Positions 9,428 through 37,120 of a DNA stretch of 64,000 nt are shown here, one piece after another. Both the position numbers and the translations under genes were made by a program. The notes under the pieces were generated by a model, which worked only from the letters and a program-made list of their open reading frames with translations, was not told the origin of the DNA and did no database searches. Numbering within the stretch: position 1 is the stretch's first letter; each line of letters starts with the position of its first letter. This DNA is from an uncultured Christensenellaceae bacterium (lineage in GTDB: Bacteria; Bacillota; Clostridia; Christensenellales; CAG-314): assembly GCA_910586625.1 (NCBI GenBank), contig CAJUIZ010000004.1:43529-107528 (forward strand), read 5' to 3'.

Positions 9428-11935
9428 TTACGCGCCTAAAAACCAACCCACTTGCGCGCCGACAGCCAAAGACGTATTGGCGCAGGCAATGAAGGTCATA
9501 ATAACCGCGTTGATAATACCGGCAAGCCAAGCGTTGCCCGTACGAACATACGTTCTGCGCGCTATAACCGTAGCGATACCTACGCAAGGAATAATGGGTA
9601 TAGCCGCGATATAGAACAGACTTGACGTTGCGATTTGCGTACCCGTACGGATAAAGTAATCGTTGGAAGCCCACAGCAGTATCACTACGCCTATAACGTT
9701 AAATACCACGTTGATTGCTATCGTAGCCCATTCGGGAAGATCTTTTACTCTGTAATTCTGACTGAACGCCGACGTTACCATGTAGAAGATAAAGAAGAAC
9801 GGGACGTATTGCAGCATTGCGGGAACGCGTACAAGGTCGAATACTCTGAGATCGAACGTCCAGAAGCGGAAGTCAACGTTGGACATTCCCCAAACGCCGA
9901 ACATAACGCCGTAGAATACCGCAAGAACGATAGCCGCGAGCAGCGGGGTTTTGAGTACGTTTTGCCAGCTGCGAATCTTGAAGCCGTCGAACGGGCGCTC
10001 GTTGTGAAGATGTGCGTCTTCGCCGTAGACAAACGTATTGATGCAGTAGTTGATAAACCAAATAACCACCGATACGATTATTGCGAATGCTGCGCACAAA
10101 ATTCCCCAAGCGGCGAATCTGGCGACTGTGTCGTTGTAAATAAACTTTTCGTTATCGAACATTTTCAGTAACGAATTGTAAATATGCCATTTGTCGTTGC
10201 CGTACATATTTCTCAAACTGTACGCGCCGAATATTGCGGTTAATATTCCCGAAAGCCAATATGTGACGTGCTTGCGCGGGCGGGTGAGAAGAACGGGACC
10301 TTCGGCAATTTCGCCTTCGGCAGCCTTCAAGGAAGCGAACAGCTTGGTGCCGAGAAGCATATCGAGTACGGGGAAGATAAGTCCGAACAAGCCAAGGAAA
10401 CCGAGCATAGAGAAGGCTTCTTTAAGCCACCAGGTTTGATTAGTCGGTGCAATATATCTGCCTACGGGAGATACGCCGAACGCATTGTAGAAGAAATCGA
10501 CTACGTGCGCTGCGGATTGAATCGAGAAGTGATTCATCGGGTGTGTTTCGCGCGCTTCGTATATTACGCGGATAGTATTTTCCGCAGAAGCTATCGCTTC
10601 GCCCTTTCTTTGAATGGATACGAGATTGCCGCGTTTGGGAACGGTGCGCTCGATTTTGCCGCCGCTTTCGGTGTCAAGAGTGTCGTATACCTTTACTTCG
10701 GGCTGATACTGCAGCTCGCCGTTGACGTAAATGCCGCCGTTTGCAACTTTGTATGCGTCAAGCGCCGCTACTTCCGTCTTGGATTTGCCCGTGACAAACG
10801 CCATTGCATTGACCGTATTCAAATACACGTACGCGCTGCCGCTATCGGTAAGAGTGTAGTATTGCTTGGACGGACGGAACTTCTGACCTTGGTCCTGCTT
10901 GACGTAGCCGTCCTTTTCTTTTAGATAATAGCCTGTGTAATTGTCTTCGTTGACGGATGCTTTGGAAACTCTTAAATACGCTTTTTCTTTAAGCGTGCTG
11001 TTAAAGAAAAATTCGTCTGCGGAAGCCTTCAATACGCCAGCCGCAAGTACGTTGCTGCCGATAGACGCGGGAGCGCCGTAACCGAACATATTGGTGACGT
11101 CGTTGGCTTGCGTAAGACCCGCGGAAATAATACCGAGATGGTAACCCGCCTTACGCCTGTCGTTGTTAGCCGTTGCCAACGTCTTTTGAGAATCTCCGGG
11201 TTTCAAGTCCTTATTAAGTTCAGCTGTTTCCTGTTGGATTATCTGGTCGGAATAAGTCGAATCTATACCGTCCAATTGCAAAGTGTTAATTGTTGCTCCG
11301 CCGCCCATCGAGTGACCGGATACGCCGATTTTACTTTGATCCACTATCGGCAAATTGTACAAATACTTTGCCGCTTGCAAGAAAATATACGGAGTGTAGC
11401 CGTAGTTTGCCTGCATACCGCCGGCGTCTATTTGATCCTGCGAAGCGTTGTGTCCGTGTCCGCCGTAGTCGATAGCCAAAACAACGTAGCCGCGGCGCAC
11501 CATTTCTATTACGTTTTGCAGCTGCATTTCGCGGTTATTATACAAGCCGTGCGTAAATACGATTGCGGGAACCTTATTTTCCGCGCTTGCTTTCTTGGGA
11601 ATGTAAAGCAAACCTGACGAAACGTAGCCTTTTACGTCGTAAGACGTATCGACCCCCGCGTCGTTAGGACGCGTGATTTTGCCGGAGTTGCTTACGTCAC
11701 GCAGGTCTTCCACCGTTGCCGACCAACCTGCCGTTTGGACAAGCGAGCCCACAAATGTTGCAAGCAGAATCAGCACAAGGCATACAGCCAGCATAAAAAT
11801 ACTGCGCTTGTTTCTATTGCGCCAAATCTTCAAAAACCAGTTATCCTTCTTCTCCTGCGCGGGAGCAGCGGAAGGCGTAACCGTTTCATGAACTTCGGGC
11901 TGTTGAGTTTCTTGAATTTGATCGCTCATATTCAT
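9428..11935 (-). CDS. Alpha/beta-hydrolase domain fused to a large polytopic membrane domain
   Basis: 835 aa. N-terminal TM helix, then a predicted exported hydrolase domain with nucleophile elbow GVSGHSMGGG, then about 9-10 hydrophobic helices in the C-terminal about 330 aa. The second ATG at 11929 has better spacing to SD AAGGAG. Confidence 0.7.
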   Translation of the reverse strand: MNMSDQIQETQQPEVHETVTPSAAPAQEKKDNWFLKIWRNRNKRSIFMLAVCLVLILLATFVGSLVQTAGWSATVEDLRDVSNSGKITRPNDAGVDTSYDVKGYVSSGLLYIPKKASAENKVPAIVFTHGLYNNREMQLQNVIEMVRRGYVVLAIDYGGHGHNASQDQIDAGGMQANYGYTPYIFLQAAKYLYNLPIVDQSKIGVSGHSMGGGATINTLQLDGIDSTYSDQIIQQETAELNKDLKPGDSQKTLATANNDRRKAGYHLGIISAGLTQANDVTNMFGYGAPASIGSNVLAAGVLKASADEFFFNSTLKEKAYLRVSKASVNEDNYTGYYLKEKDGYVKQDQGQKFRPSKQYYTLTDSGSAYVYLNTVNAMAFVTGKSKTEVAALDAYKVANGGIYVNGELQYQPEVKVYDTLDTESGGKIERTVPKRGNLVSIQRKGEAIASAENTIRVIYEARETHPMNHFSIQSAAHVVDFFYNAFGVSPVGRYIAPTNQTWWLKEAFSMLGFLGLFGLIFPVLDMLLGTKLFASLKAAEGEIAEGPVLLTRPRKHVTYWLSGILTAIFGAYSLRNMYGNDKWHIYNSLLKMFDNEKFIYNDTVARFAAWGILCAAFAIIVSVVIWFINYCINTFVYGEDAHLHNERPFDGFKIRSWQNVLKTPLLAAIVLAVFYGVMFGVWGMSNVDFRFWTFDLRVFDLVRVPAMLQYVPFFFIFYMVTSAFSQNYRVKDLPEWATIAINVVFNVIGVVILLWASNDYFIRTGTQIATSSLFYIAAIPIIPCVGIATVIARRTYVRTGNAWLAGIINAVIMTFIACANTSLAVGAQVGWFLGA

Positions 11936-12108
11936 TTTCTCCTTAATATTTTTATATCCTATTCCTTAACTGCAAGGAACAAATACCGAAAGAAAATATG
12001 TTATTACACCGTATGCCGATTTATTGCGATTTATCGTCGAAAAATCAAAATATACTTCGCATACGAAATAATTTACCTGTATACTGCCATTTATATAGCA
12101 AAAATATA

Positions 12109-12118
12109 CCCCCCCCCC
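12109..12118. repeat. C10 homopolymer tract in a divergent intergenic region
   Basis: Ten consecutive C residues counted directly, flanked by ATATAC ... GTATAC within an otherwise very AT-rich spacer. Confidence 0.9.
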
Positions 12119-12235
12119 GTATACTAATGTCAATACCAAAATGCAATAAAAAAATTTTTATTATTATTTTCATTATACAAATGTTAACACTACCGCATTT
12201 ACGCTTGCGTGCGTACTGTTATTTTGCAAGTAAAA

Positions 12236-12264
12236 TTGACAACGCTTTTATACGATGGTATAAT
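12236..12264 (+). promoter_or_regulatory. Sigma-A type promoter with extended -10 for the 12326-17605 operon
   Basis: TTGACA (12236-12241), 17-nt spacer ending in TGG, TATAAT (12259-12264). Located about 60 nt upstream of the first ATG. Confidence 0.6.
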
Positions 12265-12325
12265 AATATTATGTCGTACGGACGGCAAAGCCGTATTAAC
12301 AAGAAAACGTAAAAGGAAGAATTAA

Positions 12326-12817
12326 ATGAAACGGATTACTTCGGAAGAAATGCGCTACAAGGTGCCGAAAGTAAAAAACCGATTTATAGCCGCGCACGCA
12401 AAATTTATTATCGCATGCGCGCTATTTGCGGTTATATCTATTATTCTGTTCGCCAGCTTTGCGTATATTGCCGAAAGCAGAAAGTTAGAGCCCAAACGCG
12501 CGTTTGTTTTTACATGCGACGTACAAGACATAGATGCCTGCAACAAAGTAGCCGATAAGTTTACGCAGACGGCAGAAATATACTTTGCAAAATACGACGA
12601 GCAATTCGCTTACAACAACGAAAAATACTCGTTCGATTTTTCCTGCGTGTGTAATACGGAATTCAAAATCGAAATCGACGAAAACACCGCGCTTGTATTA
12701 TTCAAAAACAACCGCAGTTCGTATTACGACTATACCTTCGAAAAACTGGAATTATCAAACGGCGCGCTTAGCGCCGAGCAAGTGGAACAAATAGTAAGGG
12801 AGATACTGACAAAATGA
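12326..12817 (+). CDS. Small single-pass membrane protein with a Cys-containing extracytoplasmic domain (hypothetical)
   Basis: 163 aa. SD AAGGAAG 7 nt upstream, basic N-tail, one TM helix (FIIACALFAVISIILFASFAYI) and an about 110-aa C-terminal domain. Its stop overlaps the next start (ATGA at 12814-12817). Confidence 0.7.
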   Translation: MKRITSEEMRYKVPKVKNRFIAAHAKFIIACALFAVISIILFASFAYIAESRKLEPKRAFVFTCDVQDIDACNKVADKFTQTAEIYFAKYDEQFAYNNEKYSFDFSCVCNTEFKIEIDENTALVLFKNNRSSYYDYTFEKLELSNGALSAEQVEQIVREILTK

Positions 12818-15800
12818 GTAATATATCTTTTTTTGTATCCAGCACCTTCAACGATATGCAAAGCGAACGCGATATCATACGCGACAGAATAGCTCCCGAA
12901 ATAGACGAACGTATCAAACGTTACGGACAGAACTTGGAATTTATAGATTTGCGTTGGGGAATAGACACCAAAGGAGAAAACGAGAACGACGCCAACGCAA
13001 AAATTTTACGTACCTGCTTTGACGAAATTCAAAAGACAAAGCCCTACTTCGTAGCCCTTATAGGCGAACGGTACGGTTGGATACCCGACGCCGACGACGT
13101 AACGGCGGCGTTATTAGACAACGGCGTGGAAGTTACGGACGAACTGCTGAACAAGAGCATTACCGAATTGGAAATAGAATGCGCCTTACGCAGCTATCCA
13201 TTTATGGACAGATGCGTATTCTACTTCCGCGACGAAATAGATTACGGCAGCGACGAACAGGCCAAAAAGAATTTCGTATCGCACGGAAAAGACAAAGAAA
13301 AAGTAGCTCTGCTCAAAAAGAAGCTGACGGAATTGTATCCGAAACAAATTCGTACTTATTCGGCGAAATGGAACAAAGAGCTTCAAAGAATCGAAGGATT
13401 GGAAGAATTCGGCAAATCGCTGTTCAACGATGTAATTACTACGCTCGAAACTGACCTTGAAAAAACAGCGGCGCCGCAGAATCCTATAGAAGAAAGCCTG
13501 AACGTACAAAAAGGACTTATAGACAGGTTGTCGGCAACGTTTTCCGGAAGAAGCCCCGAGCTTCGACTTATAGACGAATTTTCACGCTCGGACAAATGCG
13601 TAATGCTGCTTACGGGGCAATCGGGCAGCGGAAAAAGCTCGCTGCTGGCAAAAGCCGTAACCCTGTTAAGCGATAACGCCTGCGTATTGCCTTTCTTCGT
13701 TGGCGCAGACGAAAATGCGTGTTCGGTAGAAAATATGCTAAAATCAATCGTATTCGTACTGTCTGAAAAGCTGAACGCGCCGCTATGCTTTCAGCCGAAC
13801 GAACGCGAATGCGACTACGGCGCGATATTAAAACAATTTTACTCTCTTATAAATACGGCGGCGTTGGATCGCGACGTTTATTTGGTTATAGACGCGATAA
13901 ACCAATTTGCGCGCACGCCCTACGAAGCGGATATGAAGTGGCTTAATCTGCATTCGTTAAACCCCAATGTCAAGCTGATTATTTCGTCTACACCCGATTA
14001 CTACCAACTTAGATTTATCGAAGCGTTGCGCCCAATGTCGGTTAATCTGGATTATTTTACGTTAGACGACGTAGAGTCCGTTGCGCGGAGATACTTCAAA
14101 ATAAACCACAAAGAGATAAACGATGCCGTATTGAAAGAGATAACGCTTAAAGGCGGCGATAAATACAATCCCTGCAGAGAGCCTATATATCTGCTGTCCC
14201 TGTTGCAGGAGCTGACCAATATCGGCAAGGAAGACTTCCGAGAAATAAAACGGCGCGAAGCCGCGCTGGGCGAAAACGCCGGAGACGCAATAATAAACTA
14301 CTTGGCGGATATCGCGCGAAACGCTCCGAACAAGCTGAATTTGCAATTGGAAACGCTATACGGCAAGATATGCTCGCTAATCGGCGAACGCGAAACGGCG
14401 TTATACGTTTGCTCTATTGCCGTAAGCCGTCAAGGAATGGATGAAAAATTTATAGAAAAAATTTCCGAAAAAATCGGCGTTCCTTTCCACTCCGCTACTT
14501 TTTCCTACTTTCGTAAACTGTTAAAAAACGACTTGTACCAACGGGAAAACGGCAAGTGGGAGTTTTCGCACGCATTGGTCAAAAACTACTACCGTTCGCG
14601 ATTCGACAGGCAATATGTCGACAGCATACTGTCCGCAGTTATAGACCGTCTCGACGAAACAGACGACGACAATTCTTTCAAAAAGACGGAATACGCTTAT
14701 TATCTGACGATGGCGAACAAGCCCGAACTGTTTACCGCGTACTATTGCAGAATGAAAAACGACGACCAAGTACGCAATTCGCTTGTTAACGAATTACAAC
14801 AGTTGGACGCGCGGTCGGACGTGCCGTCAAGACTGCTTGCACCAAACGGAACGCCGTGCAAAGAAATGTGGACGTTCTTCTACGAAACGATAGAAAACGG
14901 TTTGTACGCGCCCCAAAACTCCGAAGCGTACGCTTGCGCCGCACTGAACTCGATATACCTGACGGAATATGCAAACGACGAACAGGCGTTGTACGCGATA
15001 TTCCGCGTCTACTACGCGTTGGGACAAGTGGCAGTTCGCTCGGGATATTACAATGCTGCCAAAGACTATCTTCATATGGCGTTGTCTATCGTTTCACAGC
15101 GTACCGAATCGTACAAAGTAAGACTATACGCTTTACTTGCCGACTGTTACTACAACACGGGCGACAGTCTATCCGAGCGCAAATACGACAACCTGCGCGA
15201 AAAAGAATTGCTTGCAAGCGAACCGAGCGCAAAACAAACGCAAGAGCTATTGCACTACCTGTACGAAGACAGCTTGCAAAAGGTTCAAGGCATATTGCCT
15301 TGGCGCAAAACCGTTACAGCCCACTTGAATAAAATGCAATCGCTGTTACAGCTGAATTTACTTGACGAACAGGAAACCTGCCTGTGGATTGCAAAAATAC
15401 TGCGGATAGTATCTCGGTTTGCAATGCCGAAAGGGCAGTACGACGACGAAACGGCGCGCGCAATAAAATTTGCCGACGAAGCGCCGTCCTTGCTCGGGGC
15501 GGAATGTCTGTACGCCGCGGCGCTGTATACAGCTAATTCGGACACTACCAAGGCATATGAGCTTGCGCAAAAATCTCACGCTAAAATAACGGAAGCGTTA
15601 AAAACGGATAACGGCGCGGAAACGCTCGCACTGTCTAACGAAATACTCAATCTGCTGATATACTTTGCCGATGTTTTCAAAGATAACGACACCGAGTTAA
15701 TTAAACAACGCGCGGAAACGCTTGCGCGGCTAAACCTTTTGGCTCCGACATACGAGACGGTATGCGAAGAAATACGGTTGCTCAAAAAGGAAGATAACGG

Positions 15801-16638
15801 CGAAATCAAAACAAAAAAACTGAAAACAAGTAAAAAATTACGCAGAGAATCATCACGCGAACAGGTTACGGCAGAACAAAAAGCCGTAAACAAAATACTG
15901 CTGCTGATAGTTGCGGGCGTTTTGGCAGTGTTCGCCGTAGGTATGCCGATATTCTTTTCGCTTATGCGTTCATCGATACATACGGTTTTCGGTTACGGCA
16001 GTACGCCCTACTATTTATTTATAAATTTCTTTGTGGAAGCACTATTCGAAACGTTTTTCAATATGTTTTTCTGCTTCGGCGCGTACGGCTTACTGCAAAT
16101 ACTCTACCCCGCTTCCGACTACAAAAAGCGCAAGATATGGATAAAGCGTTCGGCAGTATTTTTTGCGCTGGCGGCGATTGTAACGATTGTATACGCTCTT
16201 GTATGGAATCATAACTACGAAACGAATATTATAACTTCGGGAAATTTCGAAAACTACGAAATATACGTTATGTCGTTACTTGTAACCGAAATGATGCTTG
16301 TAATGATGACGTTAAACGAAGCTATGTCTTTTGCTACGTACGAACGACCGTTGACATCACAAGCGGATAACCGCGAACGGTTTGTAAACAATTTGAGAGC
16401 GAACCTGCTTAACGCGCTTATTAAGCTGCTTATGCTGGGCGTTTGCGTAACGGTATATCGGCTTGCGTACGCCTACCTAAACGCGAATTACACTCAACGA
16501 CTTGCCGATTCGTTACTGATATTTTCCAACGCGCTGTATTACTCCTTTGCGGGAGCGATTGCGTTTGTAATAATAGCAAAAGCCGTATACTTTATATTGG
16601 AATATTCAAGGAGAAAATATGGGAAAGCTCCGCGTTAA
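12814..16638 (+). CDS. DUF4062-like / STAND (NACHT-like) P-loop NTPase / TPR-like repeats / C-terminal about 6-TM domain protein
   Basis: 1274 aa with SD AAGGGAGA upstream. N-terminus FFVSSTFNDMQSERD...FIDLRWGI...SITELEIECAL (DUF4062-type signature as in NWD1/NPHP3-type proteins). Walker A GQSGSGKS (13615-13638). Walker B-like VYLVIDAINQ (Asp at 13891-13893). TPR-like helices (e.g. YYALGQVAVRSGYYNAAKDYLHMAL). K/R-rich linker, then about 6 hydrophobic helices (about 15890-16600). Confidence 0.8.
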   Translation: MSNISFFVSSTFNDMQSERDIIRDRIAPEIDERIKRYGQNLEFIDLRWGIDTKGENENDANAKILRTCFDEIQKTKPYFVALIGERYGWIPDADDVTAALLDNGVEVTDELLNKSITELEIECALRSYPFMDRCVFYFRDEIDYGSDEQAKKNFVSHGKDKEKVALLKKKLTELYPKQIRTYSAKWNKELQRIEGLEEFGKSLFNDVITTLETDLEKTAAPQNPIEESLNVQKGLIDRLSATFSGRSPELRLIDEFSRSDKCVMLLTGQSGSGKSSLLAKAVTLLSDNACVLPFFVGADENACSVENMLKSIVFVLSEKLNAPLCFQPNERECDYGAILKQFYSLINTAALDRDVYLVIDAINQFARTPYEADMKWLNLHSLNPNVKLIISSTPDYYQLRFIEALRPMSVNLDYFTLDDVESVARRYFKINHKEINDAVLKEITLKGGDKYNPCREPIYLLSLLQELTNIGKEDFREIKRREAALGENAGDAIINYLADIARNAPNKLNLQLETLYGKICSLIGERETALYVCSIAVSRQGMDEKFIEKISEKIGVPFHSATFSYFRKLLKNDLYQRENGKWEFSHALVKNYYRSRFDRQYVDSILSAVIDRLDETDDDNSFKKTEYAYYLTMANKPELFTAYYCRMKNDDQVRNSLVNELQQLDARSDVPSRLLAPNGTPCKEMWTFFYETIENGLYAPQNSEAYACAALNSIYLTEYANDEQALYAIFRVYYALGQVAVRSGYYNAAKDYLHMALSIVSQRTESYKVRLYALLADCYYNTGDSLSERKYDNLREKELLASEPSAKQTQELLHYLYEDSLQKVQGILPWRKTVTAHLNKMQSLLQLNLLDEQETCLWIAKILRIVSRFAMPKGQYDDETARAIKFADEAPSLLGAECLYAAALYTANSDTTKAYELAQKSHAKITEALKTDNGAETLALSNEILNLLIYFADVFKDNDTELIKQRAETLARLNLLAPTYETVCEEIRLLKKEDNGEIKTKKLKTSKKLRRESSREQVTAEQKAVNKILLLIVAGVLAVFAVGMPIFFSLMRSSIHTVFGYGSTPYYLFINFFVEALFETFFNMFFCFGAYGLLQILYPASDYKKRKIWIKRSAVFFALAAIVTIVYALVWNHNYETNIITSGNFENYEIYVMSLLVTEMMLVMMTLNEAMSFATYERPLTSQADNRERFVNNLRANLLNALIKLLMLGVCVTVYRLAYAYLNANYTQRLADSLLIFSNALYYSFAGAIAFVIIAKAVYFILEYSRRKYGKAPR

Positions 16639-17605
16639 ATATCTTGTAATAGCGTTAGTATTTGCTCTGCTCGCCGTATTGGGCGGAATAACCGCGTATT
16701 TGAATAAAGACTCCGTTGTGTTCGCCGCCTTTCGGCACGGGGCGGGAACGGAAGAAGATCCCTACCGCATTTACAACGATAATCAACTGTACAACTTACA
16801 GGAAATTTCGTCCAGCTCCGTAGCAAGAGAACGCACAAAAGGCAAGTATTTCAAGCTGATGAATAATCTGAAAGGAACGTACCGTACGCAGCAAAACTCC
16901 TACGGATTTTACGGGGTTTTGGACGGAAACGGATGTACCGTTACGCTTAGTAAATATTCCTTGTTCTACATTTTGAAAGAAGCTTCGACGGTAAAAAATT
17001 TAACCGTCGTAAAGAACGACAATATATATGTCGCAGGAGATGTTTATGCGTTGGCTATGTACATAAACAACGGCGCGACAGTGGACAACTGCACATTCAA
17101 CTGCAACGCCACAATATATATTCCGTCTAAAATGACGCCTGCGCCCATTACGTACACCGCTTGCTGCAAATTTAACAACGGCATTATAAAAAACTGCGAA
17201 TTTAATACCGACATATCTATGCTATACGCAGACGACGAAAATCACGGAAAGTTCGGTTATATTTATATTGCCGCCGTCGCTTACGGCGGAGTGGGCGAAG
17301 GTACAATCGACAACTGCGTAGTAAACGGGAATTTTTCTCTTATTACCGCAGGCATTGCGACTTTTCAGACAGCGGGCATCGCCATTGATAAAAACAACGT
17401 CAGTAACTGCACGTTTAACGGAGATATTAGGGTCAAATACCGTTCCGGCAAAATATATCCGTTCGTTTACGGGCTTACAATAAATAAGGTAACGAACTGC
17501 GTGTTTAACGGCAACGTTTACGCCGATTTTACACCGTACAAATACGGCATAGCAGGGAAAGACAGCACCGTTACTCATAACGGAGAAATAATCATCACGC
17601 CTTAA
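16619..17605 (+). CDS. Signal-anchored parallel beta-helix / GLUG-like repeat surface protein
   Basis: 328 aa. SD AAGGAG 6 nt upstream and a start 20 nt inside the upstream gene. N-terminal hydrophobic anchor YLVIALVFALLAVLGGITAYL. GTEEDPYRIYNDNQLYNL entry motif. Five periodic x-N-C-x-F/V-N rungs (AACTGC at 17087, 17192, 17312, 17405, 17495). Confidence 0.7.
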   Translation: MGKLRVKYLVIALVFALLAVLGGITAYLNKDSVVFAAFRHGAGTEEDPYRIYNDNQLYNLQEISSSSVARERTKGKYFKLMNNLKGTYRTQQNSYGFYGVLDGNGCTVTLSKYSLFYILKEASTVKNLTVVKNDNIYVAGDVYALAMYINNGATVDNCTFNCNATIYIPSKMTPAPITYTACCKFNNGIIKNCEFNTDISMLYADDENHGKFGYIYIAAVAYGGVGEGTIDNCVVNGNFSLITAGIATFQTAGIAIDKNNVSNCTFNGDIRVKYRSGKIYPFVYGLTINKVTNCVFNGNVYADFTPYKYGIAGKDSTVTHNGEIIITP

Positions 17606-17739
17606 TAAAAAATTCGCAAAAAATTTTAAGGAAAATTTTACCGAGAAACGCTGACAAAAACTCAATAAAAGTATTGCGCGCGCTGTGCAATGCAAGTAAA
17701 ACCGATTAAGCTCGGCAAACTCAAATTTATTATTTACTT

Positions 17740-19437
17740 ATGGCATACGACGCTTTGAGCCTGAGCGTACTTGTAAAGGAATTTCAGGATACGCTGACAG
17801 GCGGAAAAATAACCAAAATATACCAACCGGAAAAGGACGAAATAGTTTTGTACGTATTTAATAAGCAAAGCTATAAGTTGCTTATTTCCGCTAACGCGGG
17901 GGTTAACCGTATTCATTTGACTTCCGCCAATTTCGACAACCCTAAAACCGCGCCGTCGTTTTGTATGCTGCTGCGCAAGCATCTTACAGGGGCGGAAATC
18001 GTATCGGTAAGCCAAATGCCATACGAGCGAGTTGCGGAATTTTCGCTTACGGTATCGGACGATTTGGGCTACAAGCGAAATATGAAGCTGATATTCGAGC
18101 TGACGGGCAAAACGTCCAATATTATTCTTACGGACGGCGAATACTGCATTTTGGACAGTATTAAACATCTTCCGCAAGATCTTGACAGCAAACGGATAAT
18201 TATGTCGGGAGTACAATACCGTTTTTTTCTTCCGCAAAATAAAATTTCGCCGTTCGACTACCAACGGATAAACGCATTCCTTGCGGAGACGCGACTGCCG
18301 CTGCGCAAGGCTATGGCCGAAGCGTTGCTCGGAGTATCAACGGCTACCGTAAACGAGCTTCTGTGGGGGATAGACGAAAACGACCATACCGAGACCAATA
18401 ACGCAAGAATATCGGACAGAATAAAAGAGTATCAACGCGGCATAAATAACCCGCGTCCCAACGTTACGCTGAAAGGCGGAGCGCCGACGGACGTATGTCC
18501 ATTCGAATACCGTTCTGTAAAGGGGGATAAAATCTTTTACCCCACTCTCAACCAAGCGCACGACGCTTACTACCTTCTGTTAGACAAATCGCAACGCTTT
18601 ACAAGTAAAGCAAAATCCGTTTCGACGATAGTTAAAAACGCAGTTTCGCGTACGGAAAAAAAGCTCGCCATACAGCGGCAAAGCGTATTGGAAGCGGAAA
18701 ACCGCGAATTATTCAAGCAATACGGCGACCTGATTTTGTCAAACATCTGGCAAATTAAAGCCGACGACGACAAACTGATTTGCTTCGATTATTACACAAA
18801 CGCCGAAACGGAGATTCCGCTGGACAAGACGCTTACGCCGCAGCAAAACGCGCAAGCCTACTACAAAAAATACCGTAAACTGAAGTCGTCCGCAGAACAT
18901 AACGCCAAGCTTGTCGAAGAAAACGAAAAACTGTTAGAGTATCTTGTTACAATTAAAGAAAGCCTTAAATACTGCAACGAAGCTGACGACCTTGCTCAAA
19001 TACGCGAAGAACTGGTAACGCTTGGGCTGATAAAGGAACCGCAAAATAAAAAAAAGTCGGATACGCCGATTAAGCCGCTGCGCTACGAAATAGACGGATA
19101 CACCGTTTACGTAGGCAAAAACAATGCGCAAAATAACTACGTCACGTTTAAGTCGGCAAAACCGTCCGATATATGGCTGCATACGCAGAAAATACACTCG
19201 TCGCACGTAATTATAGTAAACGACAGGCAGGGCGAAGTGCCGCTCGATACAATTGTAAAATGCGCGGAAATATGCGCTTACTATTCGCAGGCGAACGGCG
19301 GAGGCAAAATACCCGTAGACTACACCGCCAAAGCCAACGTAAAAAAGCCGCCCAAGGCACCCCTTGGTTACGTTATTTACAATACCTACCAAACGGTTAT
19401 AGTGGAGCCGAACAGACGGGTAGGCGAGCTGAAATAA
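17740..19437 (+). CDS. rqcH: Ribosome quality control protein RqcH (NFACT family, FbpA-like)
   Basis: 565 aa. NFACT-N sequence closely resembling B. subtilis RqcH/YloA (GGKITKIYQP..., FCMLLRKHL, TSNIILTD) and C-terminal NFACT-R (DIWLHTQKIHSSHVII). Confidence 0.85.
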   Translation: MAYDALSLSVLVKEFQDTLTGGKITKIYQPEKDEIVLYVFNKQSYKLLISANAGVNRIHLTSANFDNPKTAPSFCMLLRKHLTGAEIVSVSQMPYERVAEFSLTVSDDLGYKRNMKLIFELTGKTSNIILTDGEYCILDSIKHLPQDLDSKRIIMSGVQYRFFLPQNKISPFDYQRINAFLAETRLPLRKAMAEALLGVSTATVNELLWGIDENDHTETNNARISDRIKEYQRGINNPRPNVTLKGGAPTDVCPFEYRSVKGDKIFYPTLNQAHDAYYLLLDKSQRFTSKAKSVSTIVKNAVSRTEKKLAIQRQSVLEAENRELFKQYGDLILSNIWQIKADDDKLICFDYYTNAETEIPLDKTLTPQQNAQAYYKKYRKLKSSAEHNAKLVEENEKLLEYLVTIKESLKYCNEADDLAQIREELVTLGLIKEPQNKKKSDTPIKPLRYEIDGYTVYVGKNNAQNNYVTFKSAKPSDIWLHTQKIHSSHVIIVNDRQGEVPLDTIVKCAEICAYYSQANGGGKIPVDYTAKANVKKPPKAPLGYVIYNTYQTVIVEPNRRVGELK

Positions 19438-30706: not shown

Positions 30707-32383
30707 TTAATCCAAGCCGTCCAACAGCTTGCGGATTTCTTCCAACAGGTCGTCGGTGTCGCCGTCGCCATTGTTTTTGCGAATTTCTTCTATTTTACGA
30801 ATTAACGTACCGTCGTTTTGCGGAATGTAGTATGCGCGCGGAGAACCGTAAGCGGGCGAATTCTGCTCGGCGTCGTCTATGATGTGCTGAACGGATTCCG
30901 TAGCCGACTTAGCGACTGCGGTTTGTTTAGCCGCATCGTCCGTTTTTTCGCGCGGCGACTGGGCATCGGACACGCCGTACTGCAAAATAACCTGTTCGCG
31001 CGGATCGTCCTTCATTTCCTTGACCAACTTGTTGGTTTCGCTGGTTAAGTGTTTGAGATTTTCTATCTCGCGCATAAGTTCTTCCGCGCCTTCGACGTTC
31101 TTGGCCTGTTCTTCGACTTGACGTTTGGCTTCCAATTCGGCAATCTTGCGGTTGAGTTCTTCTTCGCGGGCTTTGGCTTCTTCGTAAGCCTTTTGACGGG
31201 CTTCCGCTTCCTTGCGGATACGTTCCGCTTCTTCGAGAGCTTGGCGTTTGGCTTCTTCTTCCGCCTTTACCTTGGCTTGCGCTTCCTGTTCCGCCTGTCT
31301 GCGGGCTTCCTGCTCGGCTTTAAGCCTTGCCTGAGTTTCCCTTTCCGCTTCCTTCTTGGCTTCTTCGTAAGCCTTGGCGCGAGCTTCTTCATACGCCTTT
31401 GCCCGAGCCTCTTCGTAAGCTTTTTGACGGGCGTTAGCCAATTCTTCTTCGCGAGCCTTGGCTTCCGCTTCCGCTTTCTTCTTGGCTTCCTGTTCGGCTA
31501 ACGCTTTCTTCTTGTTTTCTTCTTCGGCGCGCAGACGAGCTTCGCTTTCCGCTTTTGCGCGAGCCTTAGCTTCTTCTTCCGCTTTACGCTTTGTTTCCTG
31601 TTCGGCGATTATTTTCGCCTGAGCTTCGGCGTACGCGGACTTGCGGGCTTCTTCTATCGCCTTTTCTCGAGCTTTCATTTCCGCTTCTTCGCGTTCTCTC
31701 GCCTGCGCTTCCGCCTTTCTGCGAGCTTCTTCAATAGCAGCCTTTTGCGCTTCCTTTTCCGCCTGCTGTTCTTCAGTGAGACTTCTTAAACGCTCTATTT
31801 CACGCAAAAGCTCGTCGGTGCCGTCACTTTCTTGAACGGACTTGGCAACGGGTTTTGCAGACTTTTTGGAAGAGTACTGTTTAACCGCAACCGGACGGGA
31901 AACAGCACGCGCGGACGCGCGTTGCTTGGGCGCGGGAGCGGCTGCGAACGGCGGTCTGCCGAGATTGACGATTTCGTCCACCATTTCCGCGCTGGCTTGT
32001 TCGTTTTCTTCCGAGCTGATAATTTTTATGCCCTTACCGTGCAGATAGCTATACAAATATACCAAATCGCACGAAGCGGTTATAATACATACGGCGTCTA
32101 TTGCCGGCGCTTTGCATACCGCGTCCACTACGTCCACGAAAATACGGCTGTCGAAATCCCTGCGTCCGCGGCGTTTGATACGCATAGTACGTTCTACCTT
32201 GTAGCCCCTAACCTGCGCGCTTTCGTAAATACCCTTGTGCTTTCTTTCCTTAGCGCCGTACACTTTACCTGTAAGGATATTTCCCATACCTTCCAACTGC
32301 GCCAAAATTCCGTCGTAATTATCCGTAGTCAAATCTACGTTATCCACGTCTATAAAAAAAGCGATATTTTTGTTACGAAGCAT
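30707..32383 (-). CDS. NYN (LabA-like) domain protein with a very long K/E/A-rich coiled-coil repeat region
   Basis: Start MLRNKNIAFFIDVDNV at 32383 with SD AAGGAG 8 nt upstream. NYN N-terminal about 130 aa. About 250 aa of EEAKRKAEAEAKAR-type repeats. Confidence 0.75.
   Translation of the reverse strand: MLRNKNIAFFIDVDNVDLTTDNYDGILAQLEGMGNILTGKVYGAKERKHKGIYESAQVRGYKVERTMRIKRRGRRDFDSRIFVDVVDAVCKAPAIDAVCIITASCDLVYLYSYLHGKGIKIISSEENEQASAEMVDEIVNLGRPPFAAAPAPKQRASARAVSRPVAVKQYSSKKSAKPVAKSVQESDGTDELLREIERLRSLTEEQQAEKEAQKAAIEEARRKAEAQAREREEAEMKAREKAIEEARKSAYAEAQAKIIAEQETKRKAEEEAKARAKAESEARLRAEEENKKKALAEQEAKKKAEAEAKAREEELANARQKAYEEARAKAYEEARAKAYEEAKKEAERETQARLKAEQEARRQAEQEAQAKVKAEEEAKRQALEEAERIRKEAEARQKAYEEAKAREEELNRKIAELEAKRQVEEQAKNVEGAEELMREIENLKHLTSETNKLVKEMKDDPREQVILQYGVSDAQSPREKTDDAAKQTAVAKSATESVQHIIDDAEQNSPAYGSPRAYYIPQNDGTLIRKIEEIRKNNGDGDTDDLLEEIRKLLDGLD
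31359..31430. repeat. Three imperfect 24-nt tandem copies inside the NYN gene (encode AKAYEEAR units)
   Basis: GCTTCTTCGTAAGCCTTGGCGCGA / GCTTCTTCATACGCCTTTGCCCGA / GCCTCTTCGTAAGCTTTTTGACGG read directly. Embedded in a longer degenerate repeat field (about 31100-31800). Confidence 0.8.
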
Positions 32384-32442
32384 ATTATATCTCCTTTGCA
32401 TCGATTATTAAAACCGACTATACTATATTATTTTACAATATT

Positions 32443-34794: not shown

Positions 34795-34871
34795 GGAGGC
34801 ATAGCTCAGTCGGTTAGAGCGCTCGCTTCACATGCGAGAGGTCGTAGGTTCGAATCCTACTGTCTCTACCA
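34795..34871 (+). tRNA. tRNA-Val (anticodon CAC), CCA encoded
   Basis: Hand-folded cloverleaf. Acceptor GGAGGCA/TGTCTCT (two G-U pairs). D arm GCTC/GAGC. Anticodon stem CTCGC/GCGAG with loop TTCACAT. T arm GTAGG-TTCGAAT-CCTAC. Discriminator A plus CCA. Confidence 0.9.
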
Positions 34872-34876
34872 ACGGC

Positions 34877-34915
34877 AACCTAAAACGAACCATCGTTTTG
34901 GGTTGTTTTTCTTTT
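34877..34915 (+). terminator. Rho-independent terminator after tRNA-Val
   Basis: Stem AACCTAAAACGA/TCGTTTTGGGTT (one wobble) followed by GTTTTTCTTTT. Confidence 0.7.
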
Positions 34916-35103
34916 GCAAAGGACACTGCGCACGATCCCAATTTTAGCCGTCGGTTGAGATAAACATTTTCGGCTTATAAAAGATAAACGCCTATTTGAA
35001 TTATCATAAAGCGATACTCTACTTTTATAATTTTTTTTCGTGCACTTGAAATGTATAAACTATTGCGATTACTGTCAATATATGATATAATATTTTTACT
35101 TTT

Positions 35104-36573
35104 ATGAAAAAGCAAAATATCGGATTATCAACAGAAAAATCAAATGGGCGCGTTTATACGCCTGAATTTATCGTTGAAAACGTCCTTGATTTAGCAAGTT
35201 ATCACGGACAAACGATATTGAAAAAGCACGTCATTGACAACAGTTGCGGAAATGGCGCTTTTTTGGTTGCTATTGTGCAAAGATATTGCAAAGAATTTTT
35301 AAAATACAGTAACGACATAAATGTATTGAAAAACGAACTTGCAACTTATATACACGGTATCGAGATAGATAAGAAAATAAGGAATGAATGTATTGAAAAT
35401 TTGAATCATACCGTTAAAACATTCGGTTTATGCAATATCGAATGGGACGTTCTATGCGCCGATACTTTAACTGTTGACAAATTTAACGGTAAAATGGACT
35501 TTGTTTTAGGCAATCCGCCGTATATTAGAGTTCATAATTTGGGTGAAGCGTTTGACAATATCAAAAAGTTTTCTTTTGCGCAAAACGGAATGACCGATTT
35601 GTATATCGTGTTTTACGAAATCGGCTTAAAAATGTTAAATAATAATGGCACATTGGGATATATTACGCCAAGTTCTTATTTCAATAGTTTGGCTGGTAAG
35701 CATATGCGTTCATATCTAATAAAGAACAATTTATTAGACCGAATTGTTGATTTGAAACATTTTCAGGCTTTTTCTGCAACTACATATACAACGATAACGA
35801 TTTTGAAAAGCAATCGCAACCAAACCACTACGGACTATTATCAATTTGAAGAAAGAAATAATTTTCCATATTATGTCGATACACTTTCGGCAGAAGATTT
35901 TTATATAAATTTCAATTTCTATTTTGCCGACAAACAAAAATTAGCGGAATTGAAAAATATTCTAATGTTTAAGTCTACAATAGAATACTTTTCGGTCAAA
36001 AACGGATTCGCCACATTAGCAGACGATTTCTTTATCGGCAACTTTAGTTTTGATGAATTTACAATCCCTGTCGTTAAAGCATCAACGGGGAAACAATATA
36101 GGTGTTTTTTTCCGTATATTAACGGAAAACTTGTTGATTACGATACTTTAACGTCAAACAAGGAAATAAAAGATTATTTAGAAATGAATAAAAGTATGTT
36201 GCGTAATCGTAGTTTGGACAATGGCAACGGTTGGTATGGTTTTGGCAGGTCGCAAGGAATAAATGACGTTTATAAATGCAAATATGCCATTAATGCCTTG
36301 CTAAAATATTCCAAAGATTTAAAACTAATGAAGTGCGATAAAGGTGTTGGCGTTTACAGCGGACTTTATATATTGACAGACATTCCCGAATACGAATTAA
36401 ACGAAATGTTGAGTAATGCGGATTTTATTTCATACATAGCGTTATTAGGTAAATATAAGAGCGGCGGATACTACACTTTTTCGTCCAAAGATTTGAAAAA
36501 TTATCTTGAATATAAATACTCACAAAGGAACGGTTTTAAGAATGAACAACGAACAATTTTTAGTTACACTTAA
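35104..36573 (+). CDS. Type II N6-adenine DNA methyltransferase (gamma class, Eco57I/TaqI-like)
   Basis: 489 aa. Motif I VIDNSCGNGAFLV, motif IV LGNPPYIRV (NPPY at 35512-35523), C-terminal target-recognition region. Markedly AT-rich gene. Confidence 0.85.
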   Translation: MKKQNIGLSTEKSNGRVYTPEFIVENVLDLASYHGQTILKKHVIDNSCGNGAFLVAIVQRYCKEFLKYSNDINVLKNELATYIHGIEIDKKIRNECIENLNHTVKTFGLCNIEWDVLCADTLTVDKFNGKMDFVLGNPPYIRVHNLGEAFDNIKKFSFAQNGMTDLYIVFYEIGLKMLNNNGTLGYITPSSYFNSLAGKHMRSYLIKNNLLDRIVDLKHFQAFSATTYTTITILKSNRNQTTTDYYQFEERNNFPYYVDTLSAEDFYINFNFYFADKQKLAELKNILMFKSTIEYFSVKNGFATLADDFFIGNFSFDEFTIPVVKASTGKQYRCFFPYINGKLVDYDTLTSNKEIKDYLEMNKSMLRNRSLDNGNGWYGFGRSQGINDVYKCKYAINALLKYSKDLKLMKCDKGVGVYSGLYILTDIPEYELNEMLSNADFISYIALLGKYKSGGYYTFSSKDLKNYLEYKYSQRNGFKNEQRTIFSYT

Positions 36574-37120
36574 AAAGTCTTTTCTTACATATTTAAAAAC
36601 AGGCGCTCGTAGTAATAAAAAGTTAGAAGTTTTACACGGTGCAATTTCACAAGATTTAAGTGAAAGATTAAATGACACCGACTATTCCGTGTACTCATTA
36701 GGCTACGGAAAAGGCAAAGAACGCAAAATAAACGGTCGCTATATAGATAAAGCGGTTGATATTACAATTGAAGAAAATGGCACGCCTATTGCTGGAATTG
36801 CCGTTAAATATGTGATGAGCAATTATTCTCAAAACTCTAACAATTATTTTGAAAATATGCTCGGTGAAACTGCAAATATACGTTCTGCTCAATTACCATA
36901 TTTCCAAATTTTTGTTATTCCTGACAAAATTCCATATTTTAATAAAGACGGTATTATAACAAAATGGGAACGAATCAATGAGCATAATTTGAAAAAATAT
37001 ATTAAGTTGTCGGAAGATAACATAGATAACTATTTGCATACGCCAAACAAGACGTTAGTTTTTATCGTGCATATTCAAGATAATAATGCCGAAACAAAAA
37101 TAGAGAATAAAACGCAGTAA
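36542..37120 (+). CDS. Putative type II restriction endonuclease partner of the methyltransferase
   Basis: 192 aa from MNNEQF (36542), overlapping the MTase 3' end by 32 nt. Possible PD-(D/E)xK-like segment IDKAVDITIEE...GIAVKYV. Assignment rests mainly on context. Confidence 0.5.
   Translation: MNNEQFLVTLKKSFLTYLKTGARSNKKLEVLHGAISQDLSERLNDTDYSVYSLGYGKGKERKINGRYIDKAVDITIEENGTPIAGIAVKYVMSNYSQNSNNYFENMLGETANIRSAQLPYFQIFVIPDKIPYFNKDGIITKWERINEHNLKKYIKLSEDNIDNYLHTPNKTLVFIVHIQDNNAETKIENKTQ

Follow-up and report, generated by a model that had tools for sequence, protein, structure and literature searches.

A translationally coupled gene trio joins a membrane-embedded, NLR-like NIR-STAND protein to two partners predicted to face outside the cell

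Three coupled genes, g1, g2 and g3, lie in a single orientation on the plus strand at positions 12326-17605 of the window, the whole 64,000-nucleotide stretch of Christensenellaceae DNA analysed here, with a minus-strand alpha/beta-hydrolase gene (9428-11935) as one neighbour and the gene for RqcH/NFACT (17740-19437) as the other. Their open reading frames encode proteins of 163 aa (g1, 12326-12817), 1274 aa (g2, 12814-16638) and 328 aa (g3, 16619-17605). The g1/g2 junction is an ATGA at 12814-17, and g3 starts 20 nt within g2, with AAGGAG 5 nt upstream of its start. Reading frames, strand, flanking genes and overlapping junctions are all exactly as given in a preliminary description of this DNA. 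That description had also proposed a near-consensus extended -10 promoter at 12236-12264 on the plus strand, and the match is in fact perfect: a -35 TTGACA (12236-12241), a 17-nt spacer, a TG at 12256-12257 and a -10 TATAAT (12259-12264) give 12/12 consensus positions plus the TG extension, the sole such site in 11900-17800 (5.9 kb). The promoter block is kept in the two syntenic relatives (L090/L091, n=2), while the remaining intergenic DNA has diverged. Promoter-like sites as a class show no enrichment, 11 being found where 10.4 are expected; the case for this promoter accordingly rests on its quality and conservation rather than on the count.

The evidence supports an NLR-like architecture for g2, in which an N-terminal DUF4062 effector is followed by a NACHT-type STAND NTPase, a TPR solenoid and six transmembrane (TM) helices. 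This agrees with the preliminary reading (DUF4062-like, P-loop STAND, TPR, about six TM helices), as DUF4062 and NPHP3_N pass their Pfam thresholds and the solenoid and six helices appear in the structural model. The NIR/DUF4062 domain (aa 1-213; 12814-13452, plus strand) is a predicted TIR-like NADase. Pfam DUF4062 (PF13271) matches residues 7-120 at 39.4 bits, against a gathering cut-off of 24.7 (E=7e-10), and the family profile has its best PDB match in the human TEP1 NADase domain (PDB 11gz), with E=4.3e-31 over positions 3-213, aligning the SITELEI of the g2 family to SVTEMEV of TEP1. Within this motif, S115-x-T117-E118-x-E120 (nt 13156-13173) is invariant in 27 family sequences, and E118 or E120 is the candidate counterpart of the published mutated Glu residues (E97, E108 and others). 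Judged from sequence, the presumed chemistry of the domain is hydrolysis of NAD+ to ADPR and nicotinamide.

The NACHT-type STAND NTPase with its helical domains occupies aa 241-640 (13534-14733, plus strand). NPHP3_N is the best Pfam model for it (45 bits vs a cut-off of 24.8, E=1.7e-11); the NACHT model falls slightly short of threshold (25.8 vs 26.7), and AAA_16 and nSTAND1 are likewise weaker than NPHP3_N. Walker A spans G268-S275 (nt 13615-13638) and Walker B is represented by D360; G268, S270, G271, G273, K274 and D360 are invariant in the 27 members, and S275 is nearly so. We considered and rejected assignment of g2 to the KAP/Tmn type: KAP_NTPase reaches only E=0.019, a P-loop match that stays within the first ~70 residues of the NTPase domain (aa 252-322; 11-48 of the 293 profile positions), and the TM helices of g2 lie about 600 residues past the NTPase instead of being inserted within a KAP domain.

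The order of NIR domain, NTPase and TPR solenoid corresponds to the tripartite effector-NTPase-repeat/sensor layout of STAND proteins, to which g2 adds a six-helix bundle. The TPR-like alpha-solenoid (aa 641-1010; 14734-15843, plus strand) is predicted to be cytoplasmic. Pfam TPR matches are weak (730-784), but the AlphaFold2 model (pLDDT 84) shows the solenoid clearly, and Foldseek pairs it with the TPR proteins Ctr9, Ski3, LapB and RapI/RapF. The bundle (aa 1020-1268; 15871-16617, plus strand) is seen as six C-terminal TM helices in the hydropathy of both the protein and the 27-member family alignment, and six long helices are modelled in the same region by AlphaFold. An N-in/C-in topology with short outside loops is predicted, consistent with loop K+R counts of 10/1/6/0/4/2/5, and W1109 is invariant within the bundle. 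Among 1.84 billion representatives, the C-terminal half of g2 is confined to its own family, and no relation of the bundle was detected to any other protein in that set or, by Foldseek, to any solved fold.

The partner proteins each have one N-terminal TM segment, so that the topologies predicted earlier for all three products hold. In g1, a cytoplasmic tail (aa 1-26) that carries the conserved E-x-M-R-Y-x-V-P-x-V-x-N-R-F and eight K+R residues by charge count precedes a single hydrophobic TM helix (aa 27-45) and a predicted outside domain of about 115 aa with invariant C64, F87 and Y90; g1 has no match in Pfam, NCBIfam or PADLOC. In g3, the N-terminal hydrophobic segment (aa 1-36) is a TM anchor or signal, and it is followed by a GSGTEEDPYRI cap and a GLUG-type right-handed beta-helix (aa ~41-328), the ectodomain anticipated in the preliminary description and modelled by AlphaFold2 with a pLDDT of 89.6. 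The best Foldseek match is BACOVA_03286 (3n6z; E=1.4e-4, TM 0.51), and the N-terminal beta-helix of IgA1 proteases (7uvk, 6xja) is matched with TM ~0.5 and probability 1.0; SRRP adhesins and polysaccharide lyases are the other nearest structural relatives. Pfam Glug (PF07581) has no match on g3 itself at E<=1, but is found on three g3 homologs, faintly on the g3 of L007, and at 24.4 bits vs 20.5 on the counterpart in the distant locus L019. The fold (TM-score ~0.5, probability 1.0) and the cap motif link g3 to BACOVA_03286 and to the N-terminal domain that Gram-positive IgA1 metalloproteases carry; g3 differs from these proteins in lacking a protease domain, in its short length (328 aa) and in its predicted membrane anchorage. 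No conserved enzymatic or metal-binding motif is present in g3.

To ask whether the partners co-occur with the large protein, we compared its homologs across genomes. A g1 homolog lies directly upstream, and a g3 homolog downstream, of every full-length g2 homolog, such that both flank 14/14 distinct full-length loci and 0/73 loci with soluble relatives of the N-terminal part only. The 14 loci have unrelated neighbourhoods and g2 identities down to 27%, and each has overlapping junctions; a chance neighbourhood is thus very unlikely, and the preliminary proposal of a conserved, translationally coupled module stands. More distant variants repeat the layout. At L019 (28% identity), a bitopic protein, a NIR-STAND-6TM protein and a GLUG beta-helix lipoprotein are encoded with the same 20-nt overlap. 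In P0038 and L017, the 6TM core continues in one polypeptide through a K/R-rich loop and a seventh TM helix into an acidic BspA-LRR ectodomain of 600-800 aa, and a small bitopic gene again precedes the fused receptor. These fusions indicate that the ectodomain belongs to the receptor and is swappable. Homology to g1 could not be demonstrated for the small proteins encoded upstream in the distant variants, and no swapping of effector or sensor was detected within the g2 family itself.

Composition and distribution point to an accessory element, as the preliminary description had supposed. Its by-eye impression of AT-richness is borne out by computation: GC is 0.417/0.454/0.438 in g1/g2/g3, against 0.50+-0.021 (minimum 0.459) in the other window genes (n=32), and GC3 is 0.50/0.526/0.523 against 0.581+-0.029 (minimum 0.527), placing all three genes below every other gene of the window in both measures. 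Full-length members occur in 7/185,579 species genomes, rare and patchy among Christensenellales-type gut MAGs, and contexts vary. The trio also evolves faster than its flanks, with identities of 60-76% where flanking genes show 80-92%. Mean pairwise identity is 62% for the NIR domain, 42% for the NTPase, 28% for the TPR region, 29% for the TM bundle, 27% for the g1 ectodomain and 25% for the g3 helix body; the effector is therefore the best conserved part and the outward-facing parts are the most variable. By these sequence comparisons the divergence pattern resembles that of immune receptors, although fast change of surface-exposed parts may reflect low constraint and not necessarily an arms race.

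Association with defence genes, for which the preliminary description had suggested a check, is present but modest. Defence-type or toxin neighbours (PDC-S01, TIR_2, HipA, VWA-kinase-TerD, DUF4231+AAA) are found at 4-5/14 loci, PDC-S01 with E=1e-147, and the other loci have housekeeping neighbours; one relative, P0110, is adjoined by TIR_2-TPR and Card1. In the window, the closest defence-type gene is an RM methylase about 17 kb from the trio. No PADLOC model fires on the trio (PADLOC-DB v2.0.0 of 2023). Classification of g2 as a PADLOC Avs was likewise rejected, as no Avs HMM matches and the hits obtained, STAND_TPR (8.5e-6, aa 231-299) and mad3 (1e-4, aa 260-286), are weak, short and limited to the Walker A region or the stretch immediately before it.

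Three 2026 preprints identify DUF4062 ("NIR") as a TIR-like NADase effector in Avs2, Swarozyc, Evangelion, Vulcan and Vesta, with NADase-dependent anti-phage activity published for these five systems, one of them NIR-STAND-TPR; NADase activity of TEP1 is reported in the same preprints. The DUF4062 domain noted in the preliminary description is thus present, but its effector role had already been established, and since DUF4062 is an NADase, the output of the trio system is largely predictable. The closest comparison is PsAvs2, a soluble single-gene system that senses phage terminase (Le Mouellic et al., bioRxiv 10.64898/2026.09.04.749371). PsAvs2 and g2 have in common an N-terminal NIR domain with the catalytic Glu motif, a central STAND and C-terminal TPR-type repeats, and a PsAvs2-like output, NAD+ depletion and abortive infection, is expected for g2. 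In g2, unlike PsAvs2, the repeats lead into a 6-TM bundle, and the gene is obligately accompanied by two genes for exported partners. Swarozyc, Evangelion, Vulcan and Vesta share the effector domain and its presumed chemistry (NAD+ to ADPR and nicotinamide) but, unlike g2, lack a STAND NTPase and a membrane domain; they sense portal, replication proteins, lambdap79 or nuclease products via soluble auxiliary domains (2026 DUF4062 preprints). The animal proteins TEP1, NWD1/2, NPHP3 and TTC41 show the same N-terminal pairing of DUF4062/NIR with a NACHT-type NTPase, but are soluble, end in WD40/TROVE or TPR regions, and have neither TM bundle nor exported partners. A membrane-bound DUF4062 form is not discussed in the three preprints, in all of which the word 'transmembrane' is absent.

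The preliminary description had regarded a polytopic STAND with two outside partners as apparently undescribed. The polytopic STAND does have precedent: bacterial NACHT proteins with 'TM region' sensors have been catalogued (Kibby et al., bioRxiv 10.1101/2022.07.19.500537, Supplementary Discussion; Kaur et al. 2020, PMC7159879), and the available text of these sources describes, as in g2, a NACHT-clade NTPase with a C-terminal sensor of multiple TM segments that is predicted to pick up signals arising within the membrane or in the periplasm. With multiple TM segments C-terminal to its NACHT domain, g2 falls within this category, which is descriptive and not a sequence family. The same available text mentions no mechanism, partner genes, NIR effector, g1/g3 or fused ectodomains for the category, and the trio module itself, g1 with a membrane NIR-STAND g2 and g3, appears undescribed. 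Anti-phage systems with a membrane-seated sensing or acting part also have precedents in Zorya (ZorAB) and Tmn, but neither is related to g2: ZorAB resembles the MotAB motor and works with soluble nucleases, whereas Tmn is a YobI/KAP-type NTPase.

We give roughly even chances to the reading that the trio forms one membrane-embedded, NLR-like immune complex, an abortive-infection receptor that depletes NAD and does its sensing at the envelope. The comparisons show that g2 combines a NIR domain, intact and homologous to proven NADases, with an unbroken NACHT-type P-loop, a TPR solenoid and a bundle of six helices, and that g1 and g3, with their bulk predicted outside the cell, are its obligate genomic partners. 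Because the receptor appears to be built into the membrane and is always paired with two proteins predicted to face outside, the cell surface may be where it detects threats. In such a complex, the TM helices of g1 and g3 would pack against the g2 bundle, and the g3 beta-helix and g1 ectodomain, possibly with the bundle itself, would act as the sensor. They would respond to something happening at the surface or envelope, for which phage adsorption, penetration of the envelope or injection of DNA is the most plausible candidate, and relay it through the membrane; the conserved cytoplasmic tail of g1 may touch the cytoplasmic part of g2. The signal would free the STAND NTPase to oligomerise, bringing NIR domains together. 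Against an immune complex of this kind, most trio neighbours are housekeeping genes, with only the modest defence association described above, and g3 has a generic binding/adhesin scaffold whose closest relatives are host-interaction proteins and not known phage sensors. The roughly 17 kb to the nearest defence-type gene of the window, the swapping looked for and not found within the family, and the undemonstrated g1 homology of the small proteins in the distant variants count on the same side.

It is rather unlikely that the NADase receptor senses in the cytoplasm, its TPR solenoid binding a protein of the phage or a factor of the host at the inner membrane face, for example during DNA entry, and that the TM bundle, g1 and g3 merely localise, stabilise or restrain it as anchor, chaperone or guardee. 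The C-terminal repeats of characterised NIR/STAND proteins bind phage proteins directly, as PsAvs2 binds terminase (bioRxiv 10.64898/2026.09.04.749371), the g2 TPR region is as variable (28%) as the ectodomains, and the outside loops of g2 itself are short. This alternative nevertheless leaves unexplained both the strict conservation of two large outward-facing domains with the receptor and the LRR ectodomain fused elsewhere through an extra TM helix. The same fusions link the bundle to an ectodomain, which tells against the very unlikely proposal that the bundle acts as an additional effector, opening a pore or ion pathway and causing depolarisation or ion loss beside or instead of NAD+ depletion, with g1 and g3 as regulators or immunity factors. 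Membrane-disrupting TM effectors are frequent in defence systems, and Tmn, a transmembrane P-loop NTPase, is reported to defend by Mg2+ export and plasmolysis; yet effectors are usually conserved and the bundle is among the most variable parts (29% vs 62% for NIR), with no detectable kinship to other proteins or solved folds.

The ectodomain could also serve a purpose other than phage detection. We consider it quite unlikely that the trio is a surface-signal module for gut host or community interaction, in which the ectodomain binds a host glycan, immunoglobulin or another cell and the NADase/NTPase alters physiology or triggers kin- or competitor-induced death. The nearest structures to g3, among them the Bacteroides 'putative IgA1 protease' 3n6z, would suit such a role; BspA-type LRRs are usual surface proteins of gut microbes, and every family member comes from animal-gut metagenomes, mostly beside housekeeping genes. 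However, bacterial DUF4062 proteins tested so far all defend against phage by NAD+ depletion, NIR genes are enriched near defence genes, the patchy spread and rapid divergence suit conflict better than physiology, and the missing enzymatic and metal-binding motifs of g3 also tell against it. That three unrelated membrane genes merely share one operon in this lineage is effectively refuted, and to us scarcely credible, given the 14/14 co-occurrence in unrelated neighbourhoods, the overlapping junctions, the L019 layout and the fused versions.

Returning to the envelope-sensing immune complex, the natural BspA-LRR fusions lend independent support to the trans-envelope sensor proposed in the preliminary description, in which outside-in sensing itself is an inference. 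A bolder form, which we hold only tentatively and as possible though doubtful, is a modular outside-in receptor that detects phage at adsorption or penetration through interchangeable extracellular solenoid antennae and relays the signal across the six-helix bundle to the STAND switch and the NADase in the cytoplasm. The antenna would be a fused BspA-LRR in some receptors and, in others, a separately encoded GLUG beta-helix together with a small bitopic co-receptor. If this is true, the trio would be the first bacterial NLR-type receptor to read events outside the cell, and its logic would resemble that of a Toll-like receptor on an NLR chassis: extracellular repeats, a membrane span and a TIR-like output.

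The three plus-strand genes reported in the preliminary description are present as open reading frames, with g1 (12326-12817; 163 aa) encoding the bitopic partner, g2 (12814-16638; 1274 aa) the NIR-STAND-TPR-6TM receptor and g3 (16619-17605; 328 aa) the exported beta-helix partner. They lie between a minus-strand gene for an alpha/beta-hydrolase with a polytopic C-terminus (9428-11935) and rqcH, whose product matches NFACT_N (E=1e-114). The proposed gene overlaps are likewise found, as the g1 stop and g2 start have an ATGA in common and g3 starts 20 nt within g2, behind an AAGGAG. The promoter at 12236-12264 (TTGACA-17-TGnTATAAT), described beforehand as a near-consensus extended -10 element, matches at 12 of 12 positions and carries the TG extension; it is the sole such site in the region and is kept as a block in two syntenic close relatives, L090 and L091, while the remaining intergenic DNA has diverged. 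No convincing intrinsic terminator is found 3' of g3, so transcription may read through from the trio into rqcH, and Rfam identifies no RNA element within or near the operon. AT-richness, earlier judged by eye, is borne out by GC values of 0.417, 0.454 and 0.438 and GC3 values of 0.50, 0.526 and 0.523 for g1, g2 and g3, which fall below those of each of the 32 other window genes (GC 0.50+-0.021; GC3 0.581+-0.029).

The upstream intergenic region (11936-12325 in the window) is longer by ~290 nt in L090 (5579-6257) and L091 (5940-6585), which have several upstream blocks in common that are missing from the window. Their 5' leader measures ~110-130 nt, compared with 62 nt in the window, where the leader matches no Rfam family. 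An imperfect direct repeat (TGCAAGTAAAA...; 22 nt, 77% identity, 11 nt exact) flanks the trio at 12225-12246 and 17691-17712, with one copy overlapping the promoter. This repeat, the only scar-like feature around the trio, may date from an old insertion, but it is compatible with chance.

Homologs that span g2 entirely form ~33 clusters (27-76% identity, 1236-1287 aa), and the remaining search matches cover the N-terminal half alone. Comparison of 14 distinct full-length loci and the two syntenic relatives places a g1 homolog directly upstream and a g3 homolog directly downstream of g2 in every recovered full-length locus, usually with overlapping junctions, whereas neither partner occurs at any of 73 N-terminal-only loci. 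The module is retained in otherwise unrelated contexts, among them rnpA-yidC-jag, oxaloacetate decarboxylase...spoIIAA-AB-sigF, VWA-kinase-TerD and the PDC-S01 ATPase. By genomic co-occurrence, a check proposed in the preliminary description, the exported g1 and g3 proteins are therefore obligate partners of g2. A sporulation or housekeeping role, prompted by the spoIIA/sigF neighbours of loci L003 and L008, was rejected because this context is absent at the other loci. When 1.84 billion representatives were searched exhaustively by phmmer for relatives of g2 aa 640-1274, 13 proteins were recovered; besides two short fragments, these belong to the same family and hold the same position, and the search revealed no alternative effectors on the g2 sensor/TM module.

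The architecture proposed for g2 holds for its DUF4062 (aa 7-120) and STAND (NPHP3_N, aa 258-392) domains, which both pass Pfam thresholds; a NACHT match falls slightly below the cut-off, and the TPR repeats are weak by Pfam and clear in structural modelling. Built from 27 full-length homologs, the family profile aligns with the human TEP1 NADase domain (PDB 11gz) over positions 3-213 (E=4.3e-31), and the family shows no variation in S115-x-T117-E118-x-E120, in Walker A (G268...K274) or in Walker B (D360), so that both the NADase motif and the P-loop are intact as judged from sequence. In the AlphaFold2 model of aa 640-1274 (pLDDT 84), six long helices come after a TPR-like solenoid, and Foldseek matches to this model are mostly TPR proteins (Ctr9, Ski3, LapB, Rap). 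The six helices coincide with family-wide conserved hydropathy peaks, in agreement with the approximately six C-terminal TM helices first proposed, and the alternation of K+R counts in the loops (10/1/6/0/4/2/5) predicts that both termini lie inside (N-in/C-in) and that the loops on the outside are short.

Topology prediction for g1 gives a cytoplasmic tail of 26 residues, which is K/R-rich and bears the conserved motif E-x-M-R-Y-x-V-P-x-V-x-N-R-F, then a single TM helix and an outside domain of ~115 residues, close to the ~110 aa estimated before. The g3 protein combines a hydrophobic N-terminal helix with a right-handed beta-helix (model pLDDT 89.6), as had been suggested for its ectodomain. 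Its closest solved structure is BACOVA_03286 (3n6z; E=1.4e-4, TM 0.51); the N-terminal beta-helix found in IgA1 proteases of Gram-positive bacteria is also near, with SRRP adhesins, polysaccharide lyases and tailspikes at a greater structural distance. Some g3 homologs contain the Pfam Glug motif, and the conserved residues of g3 occupy cap and ladder positions with no apparent catalytic constellation. Searches of g1 and g3 with PADLOC, NCBIfam and Pfam gave no matches, and PADLOC matched g2 at the P-loop level only, so that no PADLOC defence model fires. At L003 (11750-13612) and L008 (8636-10453), g3 is roughly double in length (605-620 aa) with two tandem cap and beta-helix modules, indicating internal duplication of the ectodomain, as both halves align with single-module g3 proteins.

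Multi-TM C-termini also occur in 4 of 87 N-terminal-only relatives and in 2 of 65 complete genes in species genomes. A locus from a Bacilli MAG, L019 (28% identity), repeats the trio layout: a 162-aa bitopic protein overlaps the start of a 1188-aa NIR-STAND-6TM protein, and a third gene, with the same 20-nt overlap, encodes a lipoprotein-type GLUG beta-helix that exceeds the Pfam Glug cut-off and aligns with the g3 family (hhalign E=1.3e-5). The relative P0038 and the protein of locus L017 share the six-helix core, with loop charges alternating as in g2. Beyond this core come a K/R-rich loop, a seventh TM helix and an acidic LRR domain of the BspA type (600-800 residues; LRR_5, E=3e-105 and 1e-93), which this arrangement therefore places outside; a small, coupled bitopic gene lies upstream of both. 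These fusions are equivalent to g2 plus an anchor-plus-ectodomain protein, and this equivalence lends support of the Rosetta-stone type to the proposal that g3 functions jointly with the bundle of g2, the ectodomain being an exchangeable module. Since hhalign of the upstream small proteins of L017, L019 and L172 against g1 is not significant (probability 0.1-7%), we claim for them likeness to g1 in size, position, coupling and topology only. In a further relative, P0110, three TM helices are followed by DUF6273.

Only 7 species genomes out of 185,579 contain a full-length member, and each of these is a gut MAG of an uncultured Christensenella or Clostridia bacterium. Between the window and L090/L091, flanking genes are 80-92% identical, compared with 64% for g1, 73-76% for g2 and 60-62% for g3. 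Across the family, mean pairwise identity falls from 62% in the NIR effector to 49% in the g1 cytoplasmic tail, 42% in the NTPase, 29% in the TM bundle, 28% in the TPR solenoid, 27% in the g1 ectodomain and 25% in the g3 helix body. A variable sensor side with a conserved effector fits the pattern of an immune receptor; low constraint on surface parts may alternatively produce it. The upstream hydrolase gene (9428-11935, minus strand), with its long polytopic C-terminal region, is variable or has been replaced, given that identity to its ortholog is 90% in L091 and just 38% in L090, although neighbours are 80-92% identical in both. An empty-site comparison with rqcH relatives at 64-75% identity shows absence of the trio but no clean insertion site, because surrounding synteny is gone too. 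Phage origin was also rejected, as no phage genome encodes a g2 relative and the viral structural matches of g3 are generic GLUG/beta-helix folds (TM ~0.5).

Defence-type neighbours are present at a minority of loci: PDC-S01 (E=1e-147) at L007, a 442-aa TIR_2 protein two genes downstream of the trio at L013 (6962-8290), a HipA-type toxin kinase at L012, VWA-kinase-TerD at L004 and Fic at L019. At L012 (7533-12483) the kinase lies at most ~2.5 kb downstream of the trio, as does a GLUG-motif protein of 1224 aa. P0110 (NIR-STAND-3TM-DUF6273; L175 1-10529) sits in a defence-island-like cluster with a Card1-type nuclease, an HTH protein and, directly upstream, an 810-aa TIR_2-TPR protein, and has small BspA-LRR (LRR_5) proteins to either side. 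Another relative, P0034 (1321 aa, six TM; L174 1-9966), ends a run of small same-strand genes just before the contig end; a serine recombinase (Resolvase/Recombinase) heads this run, suggesting carriage on an integrative mobile element. Within the window, a tRNA (34795-34868) lies directly 5' of a low-GC islet (~0.32, compared with 0.47 for the window; region 34795-37120) with an Eco57I/N6_Mtase-type methylase (35104-36573) and a 204-aa unannotated ORF (36506-37120), which looks like a tRNA-adjacent integrated restriction-modification/defence islet ~17 kb from the trio. A 564-aa protein encoded at 30707-32401 (minus strand) has an N-terminal NYN (predicted RNase) domain and is otherwise uncharacterised; AT skew in this stretch is strongly negative (-0.526 at 31-32 kb).

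DUF4062, renamed NIR, is a TIR-like NADase that converts NAD+ to ADPR and nicotinamide via a conserved Glu; it acts as effector in PsAvs2 (NIR-STAND-TPR), which responds to terminase, in Swarozyc, which responds to portal, and in Evangelion, Vulcan and Vesta, is active in human TEP1, and its genes are enriched near defence genes (2026 preprints). A membrane-bound form is not discussed in those preprints. Kibby et al. [quoted passage not shown] (PMC7159879) treat membrane-proximal conflict systems in general terms, and TM appears solely as a figure label in a 2026 Nature survey of STAND receptors. Neither the NIR effector nor the broad concept of NACHT proteins that sense through TM regions is new, and the searchable literature yielded no description of the g1-g2-g3 module or its fused-ectodomain variants. 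Among NLR-like receptors with NIR effectors, the system is distinguished by its integration into the membrane and by extracellular solenoid domains that are either obligatory or fused.

Building on the NADase motif and P-loop, the six-TM bundle, the exported partners and the variants with receptor-fused solenoid ectodomains established here, we infer that g1, g2 and g3 assemble into one membrane complex, in which the ectodomains, perhaps with the TM bundle, would detect something happening at the envelope, adsorption or penetration of a phage being the most plausible trigger. This signal would free the STAND switch and cluster the NIR domains, and the resulting NAD+ depletion would arrest the infected cell; the conserved g1 tail is a candidate contact in the cytoplasm. 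The coupled operon first described is thus confirmed, and its reading as a trans-envelope sensor is supported in part.

To our knowledge, nearly all characterised bacterial immune sensors detect phage components intracellularly, after genome entry, and this holds for all NLR/Avs/bNACHT and DUF4062 systems that have been tested. Cytoplasmic sensing through the TPR solenoid, with membrane parts that merely anchor or regulate, is a possible if unlikely explanation, which would not account for the constant presence of exported partners or for the ectodomains fused to receptors. Non-immune surface signalling in the gut, where all full-length family members reside, seems improbable. Also improbable is a TM bundle that serves as a second, pore-like effector; the bundle is among the most variable parts of the system, and Foldseek with the g2 C-terminal model returned no membrane-protein analogue of it.

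If the envelope-sensing mechanism is true, surface recognition would be coupled in bacteria to an intracellular suicide or arrest response through a membrane-wired, NAD-depleting NLR. An NLR that works from the outside in would be a new concept, and the module makes the idea directly testable: it consists of just three genes, its catalytic knock-outs are clear and its ectodomains are swapped in nature, so it offers a tractable system for membrane-to-STAND signalling. Its combination of extracellular repeat domain, membrane span and TIR-like enzyme also invites evolutionary comparison with Toll-like receptors of animals, and likewise with animal NIR-NACHT proteins (TEP1, NWD1/2, NPHP3). Even if the ectodomains merely anchor or regulate, the system would still add an architecturally new branch, confined to poorly studied gut Clostridia, to the NIR effector family that has just been defined.
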